From positions 1 through 30,342 of IMG/VR virus record IMGVR_UViG_3300030330_004490: DNA of 30,342 nt, one strand, 5' to 3'. The notes below the pieces were generated by a model. The model saw only the letters and a list, made by a program, of their open reading frames with translations. It did not search any database and had not been told where the DNA came from. Shown here piece by piece: positions 1,339-30,342 of the stretch. Both the position numbers and the translations under genes were made by a program. The stretch is from a virus. Its lineage: Duplodnaviria; Caudoviricetes. Numbering within the stretch: position 1 is the first letter of the stretch; every line of letters begins with the position of its first letter.

Positions 1339-1376
1339 TTGCCGTATGTTACTAAGTCGGGTATGTTAGTAACATA
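1339..1376 (+). promoter_or_regulatory. Sigma70-like promoter with overlapping 11-bp inverted repeat (operator)
   Basis: TTGCCG(1339)-17 nt-TATGTT(1362); TATGTTACTAA(1345-1355)/TTAGTAACATA(1366-1376). Confidence 0.65.
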
Positions 1377-1400
1377 ATAACAAAATAAAGGAGCACAACA

Positions 1401-1607
1401 ATGACGTACAAAAATAATCAGCACTATACACATAAAGAGTCAATAAAAGAAATTAATCATATTATTGAAAATGTGGCAAGATCTGGAGAGGTGTACATTT
1501 TCACAAATTTAGAGGGTAAAAACGGAGGATCGTTTACTATCACCATCAAAGAGTCAAAATATAGTGGATGGCAGATCCACAGTCAGGAAAATAAAGGAGC
1601 AAAATAA
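1401..1607 (+). CDS. Hypothetical protein, 68 aa (moron-like cassette)
   Basis: Strong RBS AAAGGAGCACA at 1387-1397, AT-rich, upstream promoter. Confidence 0.75.
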   Translation: MTYKNNQHYTHKESIKEINHIIENVARSGEVYIFTNLEGKNGGSFTITIKESKYSGWQIHSQENKGAK

Positions 1608-1720
1608 TGGGCACTCTCATCTTTATCGCCGTCAATGTAGTCAAGCCGGCACTTCTCACACTCACGATTACTGCAACACTCGCTGCCGCAATCATCATCA
1701 CAAAAGGAGCACAACCATGA
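1607..1720 (+). CDS. 37-aa hydrophobic peptide MGTLIFIAVNVVKPALLTLTITATLAAAIIITKGAQP (not in ORF track)
   Basis: TAATG stop/start overlap and AAAGGAGCA RBS at 1593-1601. Confidence 0.6.
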   Translation: MGTLIFIAVNVVKPALLTLTITATLAAAIIITKGAQP

Positions 1721-11370: not shown

Positions 11371-12269
11371 TGGGTAATGCAAAGTTTTGGTTTCATCCGC
11401 ATCCGGCCAAAAGTGCCAATAGTGGGCAACTTATAAGTATTGATATGGGCGAGGCTCTTGGCGAGCTTTCTAGCTCCATATTTCACGATGTTGTTGATGG
11501 GATCGGGTATAGCGGTGGAGTTCGTCGCAGCGTTGCGAGAGGCGGCGAGATTGTAACCATTCAGCGCGATAGAATGAGACTCTCCGAAGATTTGGCGCAT
11601 CAGTTCGACGCTCTCCAGAACCAACTTGATCGGGGCTTCTCGGTTTCGTTTTCTGCGGATGCGGATAAATGTTGGTCGGGATTTTGCGCAAGATCTCCAG
11701 AGCAGGGCGATCGAATTATCAGCGTAAACAGCGACACTTTTCGAAACATGACCGGAAACACCTACACGCCAGTAGGAGGCGATTATCTGGTCTTGGAAAC
11801 CGGATCGCCTAAATATGTTCGAGAAACCGTCAAGGTTCGAAGCAGTTCAACAACCGTCACAACGGGCGGATCGATTGATATAAATTATGGAGGCTATACC
11901 GATAAGGTTGTTTTTAGCTATGCAAATAGACCGGCTTTTTTGCGCTGGTATCGGTGGTGGCCGGTTCTAAAGCGGGCACAATCAGAGGTCGGCAAACCTA
12001 TAATTACAAATGAGGGCGGCCGTCTTTGGTCGCTCAATGTTACGCTTTTCGTTGATTATGCAACCCTCTTTGCAAACTACAACGGCGAGGAGTTCGGAGG
12101 AGATGAGACGCCTCTGATCGGCGACTCGAGCACAGAGGACAACAACACCGAAGGACAAAGAACGGTTGACGGTAACGGCCTCAAAACGTATGAGGACGAT
12201 GATGGTGGAAGCATGCAGGGCTTTGAAGTCGATGCGGAGTTCTCTGGCGATTTCAGAGAAATGCCATGA
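11367..12269 (+). CDS. Putative distal tail / tail tip protein
   Basis: ATGA-coupled to tape measure; position only. Confidence 0.55.
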   Translation: MMGNAKFWFHPHPAKSANSGQLISIDMGEALGELSSSIFHDVVDGIGYSGGVRRSVARGGEIVTIQRDRMRLSEDLAHQFDALQNQLDRGFSVSFSADADKCWSGFCARSPEQGDRIISVNSDTFRNMTGNTYTPVGGDYLVLETGSPKYVRETVKVRSSSTTVTTGGSIDINYGGYTDKVVFSYANRPAFLRWYRWWPVLKRAQSEVGKPIITNEGGRLWSLNVTLFVDYATLFANYNGEEFGGDETPLIGDSSTEDNNTEGQRTVDGNGLKTYEDDDGGSMQGFEVDAEFSGDFREMP

Positions 12270-14807: not shown

Positions 14808-14881
14808 GTGGCGGTAGCGTATCGCCACGGATGAGAATGTGTTTAGGGTCGTCTTGTTTTGAGGCGGCTCTTTTCGTTTTT
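14808..14881 (+). ncRNA. Candidate sRNA-2 (hairpin-linker-terminator); may double as late-operon terminator
   Basis: TGaTATGCT extended -10 (14793-14801); 9-bp 5' stem 14808-14828; 11-bp stem 14845-14871 plus U tract; shares TTAGGGTCGTC...GGCGGCYCT with sRNA-1. Confidence 0.5.
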
Positions 14882-14885
14882 GGTC

Positions 14886-16794: not shown

Positions 16795-17193
16795 CTAATA
16801 TCGGAATGTCAAACCGGCCGATACTATGTCAAGATTACCCGCATTTGTCTTGACATGCAAGTAGAGAATTTTATCATTTACGTCGCGAATAATTACATCA
16901 AGACGAATGAGTGCGGATCCCTTAGTGTCGTCGTTGAGCCCTGTTTGGATCGTTGTTTCCGTGGCCGTCAAAACAAAGTCATCGCCGAGAGGATCTCTTG
17001 ATATGCAGCACGTCACGGCACTCGCTCCCGATATGTTTTGACATTGAATCTCTAGCATTGACGCGAGAATATTGATCTGTGATCTTGCGAACAGATCCAT
17101 TTCAAGCGCGACCTTTTTGCTTAGGTCGTATCCGGTTGATATCGTGGTCGCGGTGTTCGTGTTGCTGAGTACGCTAAGATTTAAATTGGCCAT
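16795..17193 (-). CDS. Hypothetical protein, probably virion-associated
   Basis: 132-aa beta-rich ORF in the fibre block. Confidence 0.65.
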   Translation of the reverse strand: MANLNLSVLSNTNTATTISTGYDLSKKVALEMDLFARSQINILASMLEIQCQNISGASAVTCCISRDPLGDDFVLTATETTIQTGLNDDTKGSALIRLDVIIRDVNDKILYLHVKTNAGNLDIVSAGLTFRY

Positions 17194-17819
17194 GAAATAC
17201 CCCAGAACATCACGAAAGCCCCCAAGATCGACAGATATGGGTTGGTTACACCTCGTAATTTAGCATATAACACGATCATTTGTACTTTAAGCGCGGTTTT
17301 TATGCTGTTCGGGTATAGGAGACGGAAAAGAGCGACCGTCATGATCGCATCTGCTTCAGCGCGATGTTTTTGACGAGGCCAACCAAGGAGCGCGCCGATC
17401 GACTCAAGAGAGTAGGATTTCATGTCATAGGGTCCGAATGCGGCAATCGCGAGCGCGATGGTGTCGATCCCTCTGCGCATGATTTTGAGATCGGTGCGTC
17501 CCGTTGTTTTAAAAAGAGCGAGGATGAAACCACGGTCAAAGGCCCAATTGTGCGCAACGGGTGTGCAATCCTTCATAAACTCGGCGATCTTTGGGGCGGC
17601 TTCGTCGGGCGTGAGTGCTCCGGCCCATCTTGCCGGAGAGTATCCATTTATTTGAATCGCTTGGCCGTCGGCTCTCTCCGGATGTAGTGGGCGAATCTTG
17701 ATCACGAGCCTATCGATTTCTTTGAGGTTTCGATCAAGTTTGATTCCCGCAAAAGAAACGCACTCATGATAATAGGCCCTGAGGCCGGTTGTTTCGGTGT
17801 CTAAAACTACAAATTTCAT
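17181..17819 (-). CDS. DEDDh 3'-5' exonuclease (DnaQ-like) with hydrophobic C-terminal tail
   Basis: ExoI LDTETTGL, ExoII AHNWAFD, ExoIII HRAEAD. Confidence 0.93.
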   Translation of the reverse strand: MKFVVLDTETTGLRAYYHECVSFAGIKLDRNLKEIDRLVIKIRPLHPERADGQAIQINGYSPARWAGALTPDEAAPKIAEFMKDCTPVAHNWAFDRGFILALFKTTGRTDLKIMRRGIDTIALAIAAFGPYDMKSYSLESIGALLGWPRQKHRAEADAIMTVALFRLLYPNSIKTALKVQMIVLYAKLRGVTNPYLSILGAFVMFWGISWPI

Positions 17820-17846
17820 TTTTTTGTTCCTTTTTTAAAAATTAAT

Positions 17847-17937
17847 TGGACAGTCAAGAATGTATCCTATAAGGTGTTTATATCAAGTTAATAACTTACT
17901 TGATATAACAAAACAACCGGCCCGCCACTCCGGCGGG
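17847..17937. promoter_or_regulatory. Divergent control region: promoters, 11-bp inverted repeat, leader hairpin
   Basis: TGGACA-17-TAAGGT rightward; TTGATA-16-TACATT leftward; TTATATCAAGT(17878)/ACTTGATATAA(17898); CCCGCC/GGCGGG hairpin 17921-17937. Confidence 0.6.
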
Positions 17938-17958
17938 TCATCTTAAAGGAGCAAAACA

Positions 17959-18210
17959 ATGAAACTAGAGCACGAATTAAAACCGATAGCGGCCCTCTGT
18001 GTAGCTTACAGTAAATCAAAAGAAGACATAATTGATTTATGGAATAGCGGCGAGATACTGGTCTTTGACAAGGAAGGCTTGAGTGTCTACTATGACGAGG
18101 TCTTTGAGGGATACACGGCGGCAAGCATTGCCCGAATTAGATGCGACGATCTGAGGGCTGGCAAGCTTGTTGAGATAGACAATATATTCTTTTATTGTGA
18201 ATGGGTTTAA
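17959..18210 (+). CDS. Hypothetical protein, 83 aa
   Basis: AAAGGAGCA RBS 17945-17953. Confidence 0.75.
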   Translation: MKLEHELKPIAALCVAYSKSKEDIIDLWNSGEILVFDKEGLSVYYDEVFEGYTAASIARIRCDDLRAGKLVEIDNIFFYCEWV

Positions 18211-18227
18211 AACAAAGGAGCAAAACA

Positions 18228-19361
18228 ATGAAAAAGGAACAATTTACACAAATAACTCTTGAGGATCTTCGTGGTCTTGGAACGCTGGACCGATCTGCAA
18301 TACTCACGTATCTTGCAATGCGTATTTACGGCGGCAAAGATGGCCAGACGTGGGCCTCTCAGGAAAGAATCGGACAAGACACGGGCGTGAGTACTCCGAG
18401 CGTTAGGCGGTCATTTTCAAGGCTTCGGCAGGCGGGTTTGATTGTCGAAGATTCCAAACAATCGCGGGCGACCTCAACACACATCGTTAAGGATCTCTCT
18501 GTTCTTGACATATCAGATATGAGATCTGGACATATCAAATCTGAGATCCCCGACATATCAAATCCGATATCTGAGGATCTCATATCTGATATACAAATAG
18601 ATAAAGAAAATATAAAGAACATAGAAACTAAGAATATAATTAATAAAACAGATCAGGAAGATGTAACAGGAGGGGAGGTGATTGATCTCGGCAATCGTTA
18701 CAAAGATTTAATGTCATTTGAAGAAGTGCAAAAAATGAGTCTTGAGTTTTTGGAAACAAAAAAGGGGACCTCCAAGGAGGTCGCGATCGATGAGCTTGAT
18801 CTTTTATTTGAAAAGTTGTGGAGTCGCCACAGCGTGGCGAAGGGCTGGATCGCAGAGCGAACACCGATAGAAGACTTTCAAAAGGTTAGAGTTGGATACA
18901 CAAGAACACAGATCACGAAGGGATTGAAGTCGATCGATTATAAGATAAGCTCCAATCAGGTTGGATCCGGAAAATGGACCGGTCTCCGGTGGATTGATGG
19001 CATGAGAGTATGGTTTGGAAGACAGAGCGAAGTTTGGACCGAGAGAGAGCGGAAACAATACATGGACTGTATCCACGTCTCTCCGGCAGAGGTAGAACAA
19101 CGAAAGCGCGAGATCATACAAGAGCGCGAGAACAGAAGAGAGGAGCGGGCCAAGAATCAAACCGACACGCGGGCGCGGTCTTTGTGGGCGCAGATGCTTC
19201 GGAAGTTTCCAGACTATCAGGATCGATACAATGCGATTTTGAAGGCGGGCATCTACAAAGACGATCTCTTAGTGAAGCAGATCAAAGAGGATCCCGAGCT
19301 TAAGGCCTTCTTTGTTATCGTTGCCACGCATATCGATCTCGCCTCGTTCGGTCTGATATAG
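18228..19361 (+). CDS. Replication initiator (N-terminal HTH, lambda O / DnaD-like layout)
   Basis: LTYLAM...TWASQERIGQDTGVSTPSVRRSFSRLRQAGLI HTH; internal iterons; start set by RBS at 18214-18222. Confidence 0.8.
   Translation: MKKEQFTQITLEDLRGLGTLDRSAILTYLAMRIYGGKDGQTWASQERIGQDTGVSTPSVRRSFSRLRQAGLIVEDSKQSRATSTHIVKDLSVLDISDMRSGHIKSEIPDISNPISEDLISDIQIDKENIKNIETKNIINKTDQEDVTGGEVIDLGNRYKDLMSFEEVQKMSLEFLETKKGTSKEVAIDELDLLFEKLWSRHSVAKGWIAERTPIEDFQKVRVGYTRTQITKGLKSIDYKISSNQVGSGKWTGLRWIDGMRVWFGRQSEVWTERERKQYMDCIHVSPAEVEQRKREIIQERENRREERAKNQTDTRARSLWAQMLRKFPDYQDRYNAILKAGIYKDDLLVKQIKEDPELKAFFVIVATHIDLASFGLI
18507..18650. repeat. Putative replication origin: three 20-bp iterons, one inverted copy, A-rich tract
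   Basis: GACATATCAGATATGAGATC(18507), GACATATCAAATCTGAGATC(18529), GACATATCAAATCCGATATC(18552); 18576-18592 is the exact reverse complement of 18510-18526. Confidence 0.8.
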
Positions 19362-19369
19362 GGGGCGTC

Positions 19370-19621
19370 ATGGTTATCAAAATCGGCGATCGGGTGTTCG
19401 CAAAAACGCCCCTCATTCGATGCGCGATACTTGGAACGATAACCCAAGATCACGATCACAAAGTAAATGTCAAATTTGACCATCCCATTAAAGGGCGGAT
19501 AAGTTGCTGGGTAGACCGGAGCGCATGCAAGCCGGTGCACATCCCCGACCATGTAGAGGTGCGAAATCGAGCCCTCAAAAAGAACACAACGAGCATCATT
19601 GATAAATTGGAGACAGAATGA
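19370..19621 (+). CDS. Hypothetical protein, 83 aa (SH3/KOW-like pattern)
   Basis: IKIGDRVF...GTI...VNVKFD; operon position. Confidence 0.6.
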   Translation: MVIKIGDRVFAKTPLIRCAILGTITQDHDHKVNVKFDHPIKGRISCWVDRSACKPVHIPDHVEVRNRALKKNTTSIIDKLETE

Positions 19622-19833
19622 AAAAGACCTACAAAAACCGAGCCATGAGAACAAAGCCAGAAGAGCAGCCACCACCAAAAGCGGGAGACGCTCGCGACAA
19701 AATCAAGATCTATCTCGGCGGGGCGCACCGAGAACGGGCGCAAAGAATCGCGGATAAAATGGGCGTATCTTTGGAGGATCTGATCTCTCGATACGTCTCG
19801 GAAATGGTTGCAGATAACCGATGGCCGAGATAG
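19618..19833 (+). CDS. Putative ribbon-helix-helix DNA-binding protein
   Basis: KIKIYL...RAQRIADKMGVSLEDLISRYV; ATGA coupling. Confidence 0.6.
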   Translation: MKKTYKNRAMRTKPEEQPPPKAGDARDKIKIYLGGAHRERAQRIADKMGVSLEDLISRYVSEMVADNRWPR

Positions 19834-19836
19834 TAT
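19808..19836 (+). promoter_or_regulatory. Sigma70-like promoter for candidate sRNA-1
   Basis: TTGCAG(19808)-17 nt-TAGTAT(19831); no ORF between it and the terminator. Confidence 0.6.
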
Positions 19837-19840
19837 AGAT

Positions 19841-19917
19841 GTGAGATCCTAGCTGTCTCGCTTTGTTTTGTTATTAGGGTCGTCGGTGTGTTCCTTTCCG
19901 GCGGCCCTTCTTTTTTT
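19841..19917 (+). ncRNA. Candidate trans-acting antisense sRNA-1 (~75 nt)
   Basis: 5' hairpin 19841-19861; single-stranded UUUGUUUUGUUAUU; 11-bp terminator stem with 11-nt loop UGUGUUCCUUU. Both unpaired parts complement the repeated early-gene leader. Confidence 0.62.
19876..19917 (+). terminator. Intrinsic terminator
   Basis: AGGGUCGUCGG/CCGGCGGCCCU stem then UCUUUUUUU. Confidence 0.88.
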
Positions 19918-19919
19918 GA

Positions 19920-19998
19920 TTATTTTGATATAATAACTTTACAACTCTAATAAGATAAGATATATATTCTGTACTAAACAAAACAAAGGAGCAACAAA
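19920..19998 (+). promoter_or_regulatory. Promoter/leader module, paralogous to 27537-27614
   Basis: TTTACA-17-TATATA; shared blocks TTATTTTGATATAATA, AGATAAGATATATAT, TGTAC, AACAAAACAAAGGAGCAACAAAATG. Confidence 0.75.
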
Positions 19999-20226
19999 AT
20001 GGAAAAGACGACTGTTATTTTCAATGTAAAACGCCCGACCGGAGAGTATATGCGAGACGTGCGCATCGTAGATCTCTCCGAGATCGTTTATACCATCAAC
20101 GCATATCTCTCTTGCGGCTGTGAGATTGTCGCACTTGAGGAGATTGACGGAGACATCGCGGACTTTTATGATCGAACCTTGACCGATGACGATATCGATC
20201 GCATGGCTGCGGATGTGCCCGAATGA
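19999..20226 (+). CDS. Hypothetical acidic protein, 75 aa
   Basis: AAAGGAGCA RBS 19985-19993. Confidence 0.75.
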   Translation: MEKTTVIFNVKRPTGEYMRDVRIVDLSEIVYTINAYLSCGCEIVALEEIDGDIADFYDRTLTDDDIDRMAADVPE

Positions 20227-22336: not shown

Positions 22337-22743
22337 ATACTGAGGTGCAGCGTCGCATATTGCAAGCGATTCAAGCAGGCGCAACATATGAGTACGCCGC
22401 GCAATTTGGAGGCGTGACGCGGGTGACTTTGTTTTATTGGCTACGGAAAGGAGAACAGCAAAACAAAGGAATTTATAGAACATTTTTTAACGAATTTAAA
22501 AGAGCGGAGTCAATGGCCTGCGTCGGCTCTTTGGCTGTGATAAACAAGGAAGCGAGGGAAGGAAATTGGCAGGCGGCCGCATGGCTTTTGGAGAGGCGTT
22601 TCGGGTATACTCGCGAGGGGCCTCCTCCGGTGCAGATTACAATTGAGACAGAGGGTCTTGACATGAAAACGTTAATCAACGAGTATAATACAGGAATGAA
22701 AGCGATGATCGGTGGTCCGGTTATCGATCTTGATGAAGAATAA
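22315..22743 (+). CDS. terS: Terminase small subunit (start reassigned to MARRTKL)
   Basis: N-terminal HTH and WQAAAWLLERR motif; upstream of TerL. Confidence 0.7.
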   Translation: MARRTKLNTEVQRRILQAIQAGATYEYAAQFGGVTRVTLFYWLRKGEQQNKGIYRTFFNEFKRAESMACVGSLAVINKEAREGNWQAAAWLLERRFGYTREGPPPVQITIETEGLDMKTLINEYNTGMKAMIGGPVIDLDEE

Positions 22744-22756
22744 AAGGAGCAACAAA

Positions 22757-23476
22757 ATGAACAATAAAATCAAATCATATCTCAAATCAAAATACAACCA
22801 ACAACCGCGCACCGATGCCGATCAGAAGATCGTCGCGTGGCTGGACAGCTTCGCCAACAATAAAAGTGTTTGGGAGGTTTCGTATTTAAAAAACGAGCTC
22901 TCAATTCGAGAGAGCAGTCTTTACCGGTGCATCTATCGCCTCGCGTGGCAGGGCAAGATCGGGCTTGCCTCTAAGAAATTCCATGATCTCAAAGCATCGC
23001 CCGACATCGGCGCGCTGTCCTCGGGTGTTTCGATCGTGGTCTGGTCTATAAAACATCGTGTTAGCGTTCCGGTTCTTCCAGAGTGGATCGACACGGATGC
23101 TCCGATTCAGCAGGCTCCCCTTTTTGGTTATGACTTCTCCGCGCTCTCATCTGAAGAGCTTGATGAGGTGATCAAGCGGGCGCAATGGCAGCAAATCGCG
23201 CGAGGTGTTACCGAGAGATATGCGGTGTTGCCGAAGGAGATGCGCAACAAACTCACGGACGTCTTCTGTAAGATCAACATCACCGATCCGGTCTATTATG
23301 CACACTCAGATGAGGATGTCTCTTTTATGACGTACACCGCGATTAAGAACATGCCGATCGATATTGTGATTGATACTGGATTTGGCCCAACTCGATTCAA
23401 CTGTAAAGCATTGACCATCTTTGGAGAGGAGATCCTTAAGGCGACCGGTTCTATGTTCTCCGGATCTTCGTCATGA
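22757..23476 (+). CDS. Hypothetical protein with probable winged HTH
   Basis: AAAGGAGCA RBS 22743-22751; VSYLKNELSIRESSLYRCIYRLAWQGKI. Confidence 0.65.
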   Translation: MNNKIKSYLKSKYNQQPRTDADQKIVAWLDSFANNKSVWEVSYLKNELSIRESSLYRCIYRLAWQGKIGLASKKFHDLKASPDIGALSSGVSIVVWSIKHRVSVPVLPEWIDTDAPIQQAPLFGYDFSALSSEELDEVIKRAQWQQIARGVTERYAVLPKEMRNKLTDVFCKINITDPVYYAHSDEDVSFMTYTAIKNMPIDIVIDTGFGPTRFNCKALTIFGEEILKATGSMFSGSSS

Positions 23477-25254: not shown

Positions 25255-25316
25255 TTGACTTATTATCTTGTTATGTTACTTATCTAAGTACAACAACAAA
25301 ACAAAGGAGTAACAAA
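25255..25316 (+). promoter_or_regulatory. Promoter/leader module of cassette after terL
   Basis: A-rich UP-like tract, TTGACT, TATGTTACT shared with the 1345 operator, leader GTACAACAACAAAACAAAGGAG shared with 27586; -10 is weak. Confidence 0.6.
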
Positions 25317-25541
25317 ATGACTAGACAAGAAGCAATCAATCTTATTCTCTCTCAAATTAAAAACAAAGCACAGTCTTATAAGTTTGACTCTGTAATCATT
25401 AAGCCAATAAAGGATGCAAACACAAACGAATTATCCGGCTACTACATAACATCCGATTTCTCAGCAAAGCACAAGGACTACACTTCAAACTATAGCGTCA
25501 AGATGATCTGTGATAATGATGGATCAATCTTCAAGTTATAG
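25317..25541 (+). CDS. Hypothetical protein, 74 aa
   Basis: AAAGGAGTA RBS; AT-rich. Confidence 0.75.
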   Translation: MTRQEAINLILSQIKNKAQSYKFDSVIIKPIKDANTNELSGYYITSDFSAKHKDYTSNYSVKMICDNDGSIFKL

Positions 25542-25583
25542 AGCTATCGCATTTCGCAGCAAAGAAAACAAAGGAGCATAACA

Positions 25584-25790
25584 ATGAAAACATACAAGTA
25601 CCCAAGCGCAGCAATTTCAAGACTACGAAATCGAAATAAAAAGCTTCTCGAAGCAAAGATGACTCTTCAAGTTTGTCTATGGGACAGCAAAAGCGCAGAA
25701 AAAACAATACAGGAAATATCCAATCAAATTCTTTTGAATTGCAAAGAGATCGAGTATATCGAAAACAACTACATCACTAAAGGAGCATAA
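25584..25790 (+). CDS. Hypothetical protein, 68 aa
   Basis: AAAGGAGCA RBS 25570-25578. Confidence 0.75.
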   Translation: MKTYKYPSAAISRLRNRNKKLLEAKMTLQVCLWDSKSAEKTIQEISNQILLNCKEIEYIENNYITKGA

Positions 25791-25792
25791 CA

Positions 25793-25939
25793 ATGAAAAC
25801 AGACAAAACAATACTTGAGAGCAAGCTTGAGAGGCTGGAAAAGCGCAGACGCCAAGCCATCAAAGAAAAGGACAATCTTCTGGCTCTTGATCTCGAGTTT
25901 CGTATTGAGCGAACAAAAGCAAAGATCGAAAAGCTATGA
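25793..25939 (+). CDS. 48-aa coiled-coil protein (not in ORF track)
   Basis: AAAGGAGCA RBS 25779-25787; ATGA-coupled to the MTase. Confidence 0.7.
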   Translation: MKTDKTILESKLERLEKRRRQAIKEKDNLLALDLEFRIERTKAKIEKL

Positions 25940-27536: not shown

Positions 27537-27614
27537 TATTTTGATATAATATGTTGCTATCTTGTACAGATAAGATATATATATTGTACAACAACAAAAC
27601 AAAGGAGCAACAAA
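27537..27614 (+). promoter_or_regulatory. Promoter/leader module, paralogous to 19920-19998
   Basis: Same conserved blocks as the 19920 module; TTGCTA...TATATA. Confidence 0.75.
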
Positions 27615-27866
27615 ATGAAAAACTTTACCGCACAAGAAAAAGTAGAAATAGCAAAATCCCTAAGCGATTACATAGACGGCTCGCTCTACTCTTATGTGTC
27701 ATTTCTCGGTCATGTTGTTGTTGGTGTTTATACCGACTTTGACCTTGACGGGATCGACTGCATCCTTAGTGACTGGGGCTTTGATTGCGTTATCGATAAC
27801 AAATTCAACAATAGAAGTAAGCACATAGAGGGCGGCAAGCGCTTCGGATTTCGCCTCACATTTTAA
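27615..27866 (+). CDS. Hypothetical protein, 83 aa (single-gene moron)
   Basis: Own promoter, RBS 27601-27609 and terminator. Confidence 0.78.
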   Translation: MKNFTAQEKVEIAKSLSDYIDGSLYSYVSFLGHVVVGVYTDFDLDGIDCILSDWGFDCVIDNKFNNRSKHIEGGKRFGFRLTF

Positions 27867-27952: not shown

Positions 27953-30342
27953 ATGTCTAAGAATCTACCCGTCAAACGTCCGTCTATTTGGGCGCGCATT
28001 GTCAAGGCCCTGTATCGTGTCGAAGAGAAGCCGGAGCGACCCGCGCACGGTGCGAACTGGTCAAGGCCTCAAGGGCAAAACAACCCATATCCCGCGCGGA
28101 TCTCCATGTCCGCATTCGCCTCTCATGGTTATGTTTTTGCAGCGGTGTCTCGTGCATCTCAAGATCTCGCCGCGCTTCCGGTCAAGCTTATTCGGGGAAA
28201 GGGAAAGGCGGCGACGATCATCGAAGAGCATCCCTTTCTTGACCTGATGGAGCAACCTTCGAGCTATGTTGATGGGTTCTCTTTAAGAGAGCAGCTCATT
28301 GTTGATCTCATGCTGACCGGCGGATGCTATCTGTTACTCGCGGGTACAAACGAGGCCCCCGCCAGCCTTTTTCGGCTCCACCCAGAACAGACAAAGATTA
28401 TCACCGATCCGATCTTGGGAATTAAGGGGTTTGAGTTCAGCGACTCCGGCAAGATCGTAGAGTATCCGATCGATCGGGTCGTGTTTGCTCAGAATGCTTC
28501 GTGGGCTTCCGGTGTTGATTCGCTTTATGGTCTTGGAGGAATCCAGCCACTCGCCAAGGAGATCGGCGCGGACCTTAGTGCGCAAAAGCTCGCGAGCGAT
28601 GCAGCCAGAAAGGGCCGGCCGGATATCTTGATCTCTCCTGCCGATGAAGCGGATATCTGGGACTACGATCAAAGAAGGTCGATCCTTGACGCGTATCGCG
28701 GAATGTCAAATGAAGGCGGAGCAATGGTGCTTAGTGGTCAGGTCAAAATCGAACCTCTTCAGGTAACACCGAGGGATCTAGAATTTCAAGCTGTGCGCAC
28801 CTATGCAAGAGAGGCGATTTCAGCGGTCTTTGGTGTTCCTCCCTCTGTGCTCGGAGCGGGCGATCTCAACTACGCCGTTTCTCGACAGCAGGCGTCGAAT
28901 TATTGGGAGGTACAAACAAAGAGAGGCAAGAAGCTCTCGCACCTCCTCACGCAGATCGCAAGGAAATTCGATCCGTCTTTAAGGGTTGAGATTGATTATT
29001 CAGGCGTTGAGGCGTTGCAATCTGTGAGAGATGCGCAGATAAATCGCATTGTTCAGCACGTAACGATCGGCATGCCGATTGCTGAGGCGTATGCCTATGA
29101 GGGGCTTGAGGATGCGCCGGTAATACCGGAAAGTGAAAGAGAAGATCCGGCTGATGACCTTGGAGACGAAGAGAGCCAGAACGTGCGCGCGCTTGATGCG
29201 CTTCTTCGTAGTATGACCAAAGACGTAGATCTTGGAAAGAAGAGCAACGCCCGCGAGGCGATGGCGGCATTGAGTGAGGCAACACAAAAAGGTCTAAAAA
29301 AAAAGGGTAAAGACCACAACGAAGAATATGGAGACAACAAAGAAAAGCGTTTGACGAATGTAAATTATTTGGCCGTCTCTTATCACCGAGGCCTGTCCGC
29401 ATTTTACAACAACCCTGCCTCGGTCCGTCCCACTGTCCAAAGTGCCGGACAGTGGGCGATGGCTCGCGTCAATGGATTTCTGTTCGCTCTTCGTAATGGG
29501 AGATACAAAAGAAAGCCCTACGACACGGACCTGCTCCCCGAAGCGCATCCGCTAAAGAATAGCGCAGATAAAAAAAAAGATCAGAAAATAACAAACTTCC
29601 CGCAGGCCGGAGATGATCAAGTTATTTCAATGCGAAATAGTAAGTATCCGACATTCGATCCTGAGTATGCGCAGGACCTGAAAGAGAACTGGCCGCAGAT
29701 ATGGAAGAGGGGCGGGAACATAGAAGGAGACAACCAATACAGAAGGCTTCTCCCGATTGTTACGCGCAAAGACAAGAAGGCGCAGACGGAAACGGAAGAG
29801 ATGGCCATAAAGAAGCGCGAAGCATGGGCCGCGCGTCACTCGGAGAACTTCAGGATCGCGGGTGTTGTGGCACAAATAAAATGGTTTGTTATTGGCGCAA
29901 AAGGTCAATCTTACATGAAGAAGCTCATAAACGATGAAAAGAAAAGGCTAAGCAAACACCAGAAGGAGATCGATTATAGACAATGGACAGAATGGGTCCA
30001 GATGTCGCACGGTCCCGCAGAGCGCAAACTTGAAAGAGTGGTATCCGATTATCTTGAGGGTGCTCAGGCCAGATATAAAAAGCGCATCCGTGAATATGTT
30101 CGATCCGAGAAGAACGGGCCTGATTATATTGCAAAGGGCGTAATCTCTTGGCCGGATCTCTTGGCTCTTGGCGAAGAGGTTGCCCGATTGACCGCAGATC
30201 TTGGCCGCGACTGGCTAGGTGTTTGGACAATCTCCGGCAATCGCGAACTTGAGAATGTATATCGCAGAGCAAAAAAAGAGAGGCCTCTTGATCTGGTATT
30301 TGGAGAGAGGGCGATTGCTGAATCTGCTATCGATCTAAGTGC
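27953..30342 (+). CDS. HK97-family portal protein fused to inserted domains and gpF; 933 aa when circularised (absent from ORF track because it has no stop in the window)
   Basis: Hand translation: YVFAAVSRASQDLAALPVKL, HPFLDLMEQP, LTGGCY, LYGLGGI, DLEFQ..R...REAISAVFGVPPSVLG...NYA; open to the window end and in frame with 13..1308. Confidence 0.92.
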   Translation, partial: MSKNLPVKRPSIWARIVKALYRVEEKPERPAHGANWSRPQGQNNPYPARISMSAFASHGYVFAAVSRASQDLAALPVKLIRGKGKAATIIEEHPFLDLMEQPSSYVDGFSLREQLIVDLMLTGGCYLLLAGTNEAPASLFRLHPEQTKIITDPILGIKGFEFSDSGKIVEYPIDRVVFAQNASWASGVDSLYGLGGIQPLAKEIGADLSAQKLASDAARKGRPDILISPADEADIWDYDQRRSILDAYRGMSNEGGAMVLSGQVKIEPLQVTPRDLEFQAVRTYAREAISAVFGVPPSVLGAGDLNYAVSRQQASNYWEVQTKRGKKLSHLLTQIARKFDPSLRVEIDYSGVEALQSVRDAQINRIVQHVTIGMPIAEAYAYEGLEDAPVIPESEREDPADDLGDEESQNVRALDALLRSMTKDVDLGKKSNAREAMAALSEATQKGLKKKGKDHNEEYGDNKEKRLTNVNYLAVSYHRGLSAFYNNPASVRPTVQSAGQWAMARVNGFLFALRNGRYKRKPYDTDLLPEAHPLKNSADKKKDQKITNFPQAGDDQVISMRNSKYPTFDPEYAQDLKENWPQIWKRGGNIEGDNQYRRLLPIVTRKDKKAQTETEEMAIKKREAWAARHSENFRIAGVVAQIKWFVIGAKGQSYMKKLINDEKKRLSKHQKEIDYRQWTEWVQMSHGPAERKLERVVSDYLEGAQARYKKRIREYVRSEKNGPDYIAKGVISWPDLLALGEEVARLTADLGRDWLGVWTISGNRELENVYRRAKKERPLDLVFGERAIAESAIDLS
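29447..30342 (+). repeat. Terminal direct repeat copy B (imperfect)
   Basis: See 1-896. Confidence 0.97.

Follow-up and report, generated by a model that had tools for sequence, protein, structure and literature searches.

A conserved sRNA-like gene in a tailed-phage genome is a probable trans-acting repressor of dispersed early genes

The window analyzed here, a 30,342-nucleotide stretch of a tailed-virus genome (Caudoviricetes; IMG/VR record IMGVR_UViG_3300030330_004490), contains a conserved sRNA-like gene that is probably a trans-acting translational repressor of a dispersed set of early genes, a reading that draws on predicted RNA pairing and on comparison with related phages. The element itself is real, conserved, and uncatalogued in Rfam. 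The window encodes head, tail, terminase, replication-initiator, exonuclease, and methylase functions (26 proteins scanned) and corresponds to a phage record of ~29.4 kb with an 896-nt terminal repeat, 840 positions of which are identical between the copies at 1-896 and 29447-30342. The 56/896 positions that differ suggest an assembly in which two strains were joined, and a portal-like ORF starting at 27953 continues into a head-morphogenesis domain located at 13-1308. The closest cultured-phage terminase is 30% identical, and DNA similarity is confined to a methylase. A host genome search gave two hits, a 1-kb contig match to a Puniceispirillales-labelled MAG and a match at 23% identity, both of which were discarded as host evidence.

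The predicted RNA lies directly behind a small gene, the end of which carries the putative promoter, and its parts are the following.
19618 to 19833, plus strand: small gene hosting the promoter, likely encoding a ribbon-helix-helix (RHH) DNA-binding protein
19808 to 19813, plus strand: predicted -35, TTGCAG, within Val-Ala-Asp codons of gene 19618-19833
19831 to 19836, plus strand: predicted -10, TAGTAT, overlapping the stop codon of gene 19618-19833
19841 to 19917, plus strand: predicted small RNA of ~75 nt, its start placed from the -10
19841 to 19861, plus strand: 5′ hairpin (7 bp), the 3′ arm of which is predicted to prolong the linker helix across the Shine-Dalgarno (SD)
19861 to 19876, plus strand: seed 1, a linker rich in U and G that can pair with the A/C-rich leader 5′ of the SD
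19876 to 19917, plus strand: intrinsic-terminator-like hairpin and U tract, stem 19876-19886/19898-19908
19887 to 19897, plus strand: seed 2, the terminator loop UGUGUUCCUUU of 11 nt, able to pair with the AAAGGAGCA Shine-Dalgarno block

An earlier, sequence-only reading had described this region as an ORF-free unit of hairpin, linker, and terminator, and the analysis bore this out. No ORF was found within 19841-19917, and the fold of 19841-19919 comprises a hairpin of 7 bp, a linker of 14 nt, and an 11-bp stem whose loop has 11 nt, followed by a U tract. Its stability of -27.2 kcal/mol (z -5.3) was equalled by 0/200 shuffles, and the minus strand gave a z of -2.1. The Rfam comparison proposed in that reading was run and gave no match at 19808-19917 up to E=1, and four relatives gave none at the gathering score. 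The promoter it had named, TTGCAG-17-TAGTAT, scores under the consensus scan threshold, with its -35 in the last codons of gene 19618-19833, but has comparative support in relatives. The product of this gene had no Pfam or PHROG match; protein-atlas look-alikes with RHH families at 0.92-0.93 are a lead only. Elsewhere in the window, a terminator past the lysis genes, at 14844-14885 (+), has a stem (AGGGTCGTC...GGCGGCTCT) much like that of the sRNA terminator and a short U/G-rich loop, and is preceded by another strong hairpin. It pairs weakly with the leaders (apart from the sRNA unit, no terminator region exceeds -3.6), and since the sRNA of one relative (G015) occupies the equivalent position, it may be a paralog or relic.

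In the window, 12 ORFs are each preceded by a copy of the leader AACAAAACAAAGGAGCAACAAAATG. Pairing energies were computed with a custom gapless-helix seed model with accessibility penalties (other than IntaRNA), and the predicted target sites are listed below.
1372 to 1403, plus strand: best predicted target leader, gene 1401-1607 (-13.1 kcal/mol)
1593 to 1609, plus strand: predicted target SD, 37-aa ORF at 1607
1703 to 1719, plus strand: predicted target SD, 11-codon ORF at 1717
17817 to 17833, minus strand: predicted target SD, DnaQ-like exonuclease gene 17181-17819, a partly conserved target in relatives (median -4.1)
17905 to 17916, plus strand: site complementary to the linker, at the start of the replication operon
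17945 to 17961, plus strand: predicted target SD, gene 17959-18210
18209 to 18230, plus strand: predicted target leader, replication initiator (rep) 18228-19361, with PHROG replication-initiation hits
19977 to 20001, plus strand: predicted target leader, adjacent gene 19999-20226, preceded by a promoter-like site at 19938
22743 to 22759, plus strand: predicted target SD, conserved gene 22757-23476 (median -7.3 over 13 genomes), its product by eye a putative winged-helix regulator with no family hit
25295 to 25319, plus strand: predicted target leader, gene 25317-25541, linker only
25565 to 25586, plus strand: predicted target leader, gene 25584-25790
25779 to 25795, plus strand: predicted target SD, gene 25793-25939
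27593 to 27617, plus strand: predicted target leader, gene 27615-27866

The matches quoted in the sequence-only reading were all located: the linker pairs with 1375-1390 at 16/16 positions, one of them G-U, and has perfect 12-mer matches at 17905, 19977, 25295, and 27593 and 9-mer matches at 18209 and 25565. For the loop, 11/11 positions pair at each of 1387 and 1703, one of them G-U, and 9/9, all Watson-Crick, at 17825-17833(-). Two of its generalizations needed trimming. Loop pairing had been claimed for 12 genes, but only the linker reaches the gene at 25317 (the loop gives -0.9) and the ORF at 1717 is just 11 codons long; and of the five leaders called promoter-proximal, four have a promoter-like site but 17905 has none that is convincing. 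In the replication-operon leader, a GC-rich hairpin (17917-17937) separates the linker site (17905) from the SD (17945). Two perfect 11-bp inverted repeats, at 1345-1376 and 17878-17908, lie across or next to two target promoter regions, and palindromes are found in promoter spacers of relatives; the inverted repeats in the window may be operators, as in the extended start-associated sequences of cluster K phages.

When 41 gene starts were ranked by pairing with the RNA, some late-gene start positions being approximate, the 12 genes sharing the AAAGGA leader took ranks 1-12, at -7.2 to -13.1 kcal/mol against -5.6 for the best other start. The comparison of start regions with shuffled controls that had been proposed at the outset gave, under our model, 0/200 shuffles reaching the observed mean for the 12 genes with each of three shuffle types. 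Because the 12-gene set is defined by its motif, the ranking and shuffle tests are partly post hoc. Taken alone, the loop value was reached by 1/300 shuffles and the linker value by 13/300, so the original caveat that the target motif is of low complexity does hold for the linker. Across the genome, 15 non-self sites reached -8.0 or better, of which 11 are leader sites, one falls within the opening codons of rep, and the remaining three are elsewhere; the best sites are dispersed across 1387-27601 on both strands.

Conservation was followed in relatives gathered with terminase and small-gene (19618-19833) queries, at terminase identities down to ~50%; the rep protein query recovered no relatives directly, and a two-seed DNA pattern search gave two loci (L055 and L056) for which kinship to the window phage was not established. 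After removal of duplicate records (L104, L113, L126, L128), a hairpin-U-tract unit was found directly after the stop of the 19618-19833 homolog at 42/45 anchored loci, representing 26 distinct sequences, and the three misses were two loci cut by contig ends (L106, L107) and one under the stem threshold (L129). Among relative contigs fetched in full, 14/15 carry the element. The -35 reads TTGC(G/A/C)G in 29/29 distinct promoters, a constancy that is partly protein-coded, and the free third codon base within it is T in 29/29, compared with 122/408 background codons; a -10 of the form TAnnnT follows at exactly 17 nt in 26/29. For seed 1, UUGUU-type words occur in 26/26 distinct homologs. In the two-hairpin form the terminator stem shows compensatory changes at 6/11 pairs (11 homologs), and in a single-hairpin form, which lacks the 5′ hairpin and holds both seeds in one 20-25 nt loop, 5/12 stem pairs covary. 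The 5′ hairpin sequence is not alignable between lineages (MAFFT). A longer variant was seen in L006 (786-933, +) and L105, with a second U/G-loop terminator downstream and a leader-like 3′ insert predicted to fold back onto the linker and mask it, which counts against our preferred reading.

The RNA follows the RHH-like gene in most lineages and a lysis-region gene in G015, and in G013 and L041 a structural gene lies downstream of its terminator on the same strand. Such an arrangement, together with single-hairpin lineages in which the whole terminator loop is seed and pairing extends to as much as 22 bp (L011), would fit a reversed flow of information, in which early mRNAs bind the nascent element and alter its termination, making it an RNA-sensing attenuator or a sponge; P4 CI does control termination through RNA pairing (PMC4825925, in the part of that source available). 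We regard this as very unlikely, given that the promoter stands 5-8 nt upstream of the first stem in the homologs, as for a stand-alone RNA, that in most cases a separate promoter-like site serves the following gene, and that the terminator stem of the window RNA stays intact when it is cofolded with a leader.

The sequence-only reading had named covariation of RNA and leaders in relatives as a check, and between lineages such co-change was found. Leader words differ among lineages and the seeds of each lineage match its own leaders: AAAGGAGCA is accompanied by UGUUCCUUU, UGCUCUUU, or GCUUCUUUG; AAAGGACAA by UUGUUCUUU or UUGUCCUU; AAGGACAA by UUGUCCUU; ACAAGGA by UCCUUGU; AGAGGACAA by UUGUCCUCU; AACGGAG by UUCCGUU; and ACACUCAAC by GUUGAGUGU. 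In a 22 x 22 matrix of RNAs and leader sets, pairing within a genome beat pairing with foreign leaders, and 0/100000 permutations did as well. For four synteny-defined lineages the cognate assignment was the best of 24, and for seven lineages it was the best of 5040 permutations, a figure that is partly circular because three added members were picked by pairing; tail-fibre starts had been removed from the leader sets of the 22 x 22 and seven-lineage comparisons. Within lineages covariation was weak (p=0.13, 0.016, and 0.55), so the covariation evidence rests on few independent events, and one RNA (L088) ranked 13 of 17 for its own leaders. In a TerL tree the lineage groups are clustered, not all of them monophyletic. 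At a start near 11395 (+) in L011, the RNA loop and one leader form a continuous 22-bp helix that includes an otherwise unique GUCGA word.

A blind scan of six further records placed a hairpin-U-tract unit carrying the seed of its own lineage as the top hit in G010, G011, G013, and G015, with seeds UUCCGUUGU and UCUUCGUUGUUG against ACAACGGAG leaders and UUGAUUAUCCUUGUUGAGUGUUU against ACACUCAAC...AAGGAUAAUCAA leaders. The scan excluded overlaps with antisense leaders, incompletely in L025 and G013; an earlier scoring of 93-nt windows ending at terminators had missed the known element in G008, G010, and G014 and ranked antisense leader copies first in G014 and G011. No element was detected by the blind scan in the complete G012 or in the fragment L025. 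G012 (L078, L079), a complete relative, has few A/C-rich leaders (four found) along with no detectable element, a pattern that fits joint loss or divergence of the two.

These co-changes bear on two further explanations. The usual 16S anti-SD resembles UUCCUUU, and the loop could accordingly be imagined as an anti-SD segment aimed mainly at host mRNAs, causing host shut-off, with the phage leader matches incidental. We consider this the least probable of the explanations, since the seeds track phage-specific leader words past the SD core and differ between lineages. The other is that there is no RNA function at all and that the unit is an ordinary terminator with low-complexity U/G matches, or an inverted DNA copy of the leader that persists as a protein-binding site or duplication relic. 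The simple motif and the weak significance of the linker alone speak for it, and we nevertheless hold it to be highly improbable: the change of the leader from AAAGG to AACGG is mirrored in the seed by CCUUU to CCGUU or UUCGUU, just as ACACUCAAC goes with GUUGAGUGU, and the other 15 terminator-like regions of the window pair at -3.6 or weaker, compared with -8.8 for the sRNA unit. Mismatches point the same way. In alignments chosen by Watson-Crick matches, wobble-type mismatches (45/253 G, 23/80 U) exceeded their mirror images (37/1558 A, 16/561 C), with wobbles opposite different Gs in different lineages, so that RNA pairing is kept and DNA identity broken. The excess favours plus-strand RNA pairing over a DNA site, with base composition contributing and with counts that are not independent; on the side of the no-function view, C-U mismatches are also common (49/561) and G-U pairs are favoured by AT-biased mutation. 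The minus-strand site GAGACA-16-TATACT is not conserved as such, and only 7/26 homologs have a minus-strand promoter-like site.

Selectivity was also seen with targets chosen by orthology. In 16 relatives, 21/40 starts of rep, exonuclease, and gene-22757 orthologs reached -5.5, compared with 4/243 starts of morphogenesis, packaging, and lysis genes. Targeting is most consistent for the rep leader (median -7.9 in 14 genomes), and several lineages no longer have the exonuclease as a target (0.0 in 3/16). The adjacent leader ranks first in only 4/22 genomes and is absent from G013, where a structural gene follows the element, and both points favour action in trans. The original proposal of one RNA silencing a genome-wide early regulon that includes the replication initiator is thus strongly supported, by conservation, lineage covariation, and the ortholog test, as far as trans antisense pairing is concerned, whereas its two suggested purposes, early shut-off and immunity, are not separated by these results.

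In the mechanism we propose, the host sigma-70 polymerase would transcribe the sRNA from TTGCAG-17-TAGTAT, and the replication operon probably terminates at the sRNA terminator too. Repression could take two routes. In the first, the linker would serve as a toehold on the A/C-rich leader and the helix would then invade the 5′ hairpin and cover the SD, and in the second, the terminator loop would itself pair with the SD; both routes occupy AAAG on the target and are, therefore, alternatives. The first route is suggested by cofolding with the leader of gene 1401 (-43.3, compared with -27.2 for the RNA alone), in which the 3′ arm of the 5′ hairpin may prolong the linker helix, an extension over the SD that the folding model allows and that the sequence-only reading had overlooked. 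Either way, the SD and an ACA enhancer would be occluded and ribosome loading blocked, which would shut down the replication initiator, the exonuclease, a regulator, and accessory genes, while late genes, with other SD registers, would escape. We propose that the sRNA, made alongside its targets and more stable than they are, would accumulate, cap early expression, and then end it.

The same pairing could serve another purpose. By silencing the replication initiator and early genes, the RNA might maintain a non-integrated carrier or plasmid-like state, or exclude superinfecting kin, an alternative that we judge unlikely, though the most substantial of those considered. The consistency of rep as a target suits it, as do the position of the RNA after the RHH-like gene in most lineages and the palindromes that overlap two target promoter regions; with the RHH-like gene, the system would resemble copy-number control by CopG and an antisense RNA, which jointly act on repB (PMC4485353, as far as the text available goes), and would be compatible with the repressor reading. 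Lineage-specific seeds likewise recall the heteroimmunity of P1 and P7 c4 described in the available portion of PMC12197685. Pairing across lineages is often still strong, so that immunity would be leaky, and in G015 the RNA follows a lysis-region gene instead of the RHH gene. Searches with positive controls found no tyrosine integrase or resolvase in 5/5 complete genomes, which argues against classical prophage immunity, and no ParA among the 26 window proteins scanned. Iteron-like GATATC/AGATAT repeats at 18485-18592 (+), within the replication-initiator gene, likely mark the origin.

Returning to translational repression of early genes as the preferred reading, its nearest functional parallel is the sRNA GcvB, which represses by blocking ACA enhancers adjoining the SD (PMC3879156, from the section available). 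Like GcvB, the window RNA appears trans-encoded and multi-target, here with ACA-rich leaders and a U/G-rich seed. It has its own promoter, an intrinsic terminator, and no ORF, as judged from sequence and conservation, and its predicted exposed seed can pair, imperfectly, with many translation-initiation regions. It differs in being phage-encoded, in targeting the phage's own genes, in its length of ~55-85 nt, and in its lineage-variable seeds, and the absence of an Rfam match for the window unit extends to the GcvB family. It is, then, likely a GcvB-like, trans-encoded sRNA that would block translation of the phage's own early regulon. In outcome, the system resembles T4 RegB, a protein endoribonuclease that cuts GGAG and inactivates many early mRNAs, according to the part of PMC3014915 available: one phage factor addresses a shared SD motif of early mRNAs and late ones are spared. 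RegB is a nuclease protein, whereas the window candidate is a pairing RNA.

The sequence-only reading had offered P1 c4 and P4 CI as its analogy, and this holds for size and for pairing in trans, but GcvB-type sRNAs and the start-associated sequences of cluster K phages are closer by anatomy. In the sections of the sources at hand, c4 is 77 nt long, CI is processed from a precursor (PMC4825925), and each has a single operon as its target, ant for P1/P7 c4 and the replication transcript for P4 CI (PMC12197685, PMC4825925, PMC2864571). The likeness is one of similar-size, trans-acting phage RNAs with exposed pairing segments and phage-specific pairing, and the difference is that the window targets are a dozen dispersed genes instead of a single antirepressor or replication operon. 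Membership in the c4 antisense RNA family (RF01695) or with P4 CI was rejected, with no covariance-model match and with dispersed targets, and no antirepressor was found among the 26 window proteins scanned.

A second comparison is with plasmid pMV158, in which a small repressor acts together with a small RNA that prevents the replication initiator from being translated. RNAII of this plasmid is a cis-encoded antisense RNA. The available text of PMC4485353 describes joint control of the initiator by CopG and RNAII, with a single-stranded segment of the RNA that binds first and then invades a stem. RNAII is antisense to one gene, whereas the window RNA pairs imperfectly with many predicted targets, and cis-antisense copy control of the CopG/RNAII type was rejected, as the RNA at 19841-19917(+) and the rep leader at 18209-18230(+) are on the same strand and the RNA lies ~1.6 kb from the rep start. 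For the RHH repressor that the comparison calls for in the rep operon, the atlas look-alikes described above, with no Pfam match, are again a lead only.

The closest published anatomy is that of the start-associated sequences (SAS, with extended forms, ESAS) of cluster K mycobacteriophages. In both cases an asymmetric repeat stands at the starts of non-structural genes and a lone copy is reversed, one such site per K1 genome (PMC3203893); the accessible sections of that 2011 report leave open whether the SAS binder is RNA or protein and propose no antisense RNA. Sequence, host, and phage are unrelated, the SAS consensus being GGGATAGGAGCCC and the window motif AACAAAACAAAGGAGCAACAAAATG. In 31.6 kb of the cultured mycobacteriophage Adephagia that were examined, we found 16 forward SAS and one reversed, the latter within the loop of a long hairpin that lies between genes 92 and 93, at 58612-58755 (L132 30613-30756). 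This hairpin lies downstream of another strong hairpin.

A literature search over titles and the openings of abstracts, with most subscription journals outside its coverage, found no description of a phage sRNA directed against a shared early leader, and in the available parts of the sources cited above the known phage antisense RNAs target single phage operons or host genes. The window structure may be listed, without function, in a catalogue of 10,006 viral candidate structured RNAs (PMC10690425, in the part available). If the reading is correct, phage gene timing would gain a new layer, one RNA that co-evolves with an early leader found across the genome, and the repetition of a single leader before unrelated early genes in many phages would be accounted for. 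The natural seed/leader pairs of seven lineages are ready-made orthogonal controls, and Adephagia, with the same layout and in culture, makes the SAS question open since 2011 testable. On a broader proposal we are almost evenly divided, leaning slightly against: that phages widely and independently build RNA-addressable regulons, placing a private strong leader on each early or newly acquired gene and using a single co-evolving sRNA as the off-switch. In such a regulon an RNA would play the part that RegB plays in T4, with lineage-specific immunity as a further effect, and the single reversed SAS in cluster K mycobacteriophages would find an explanation.
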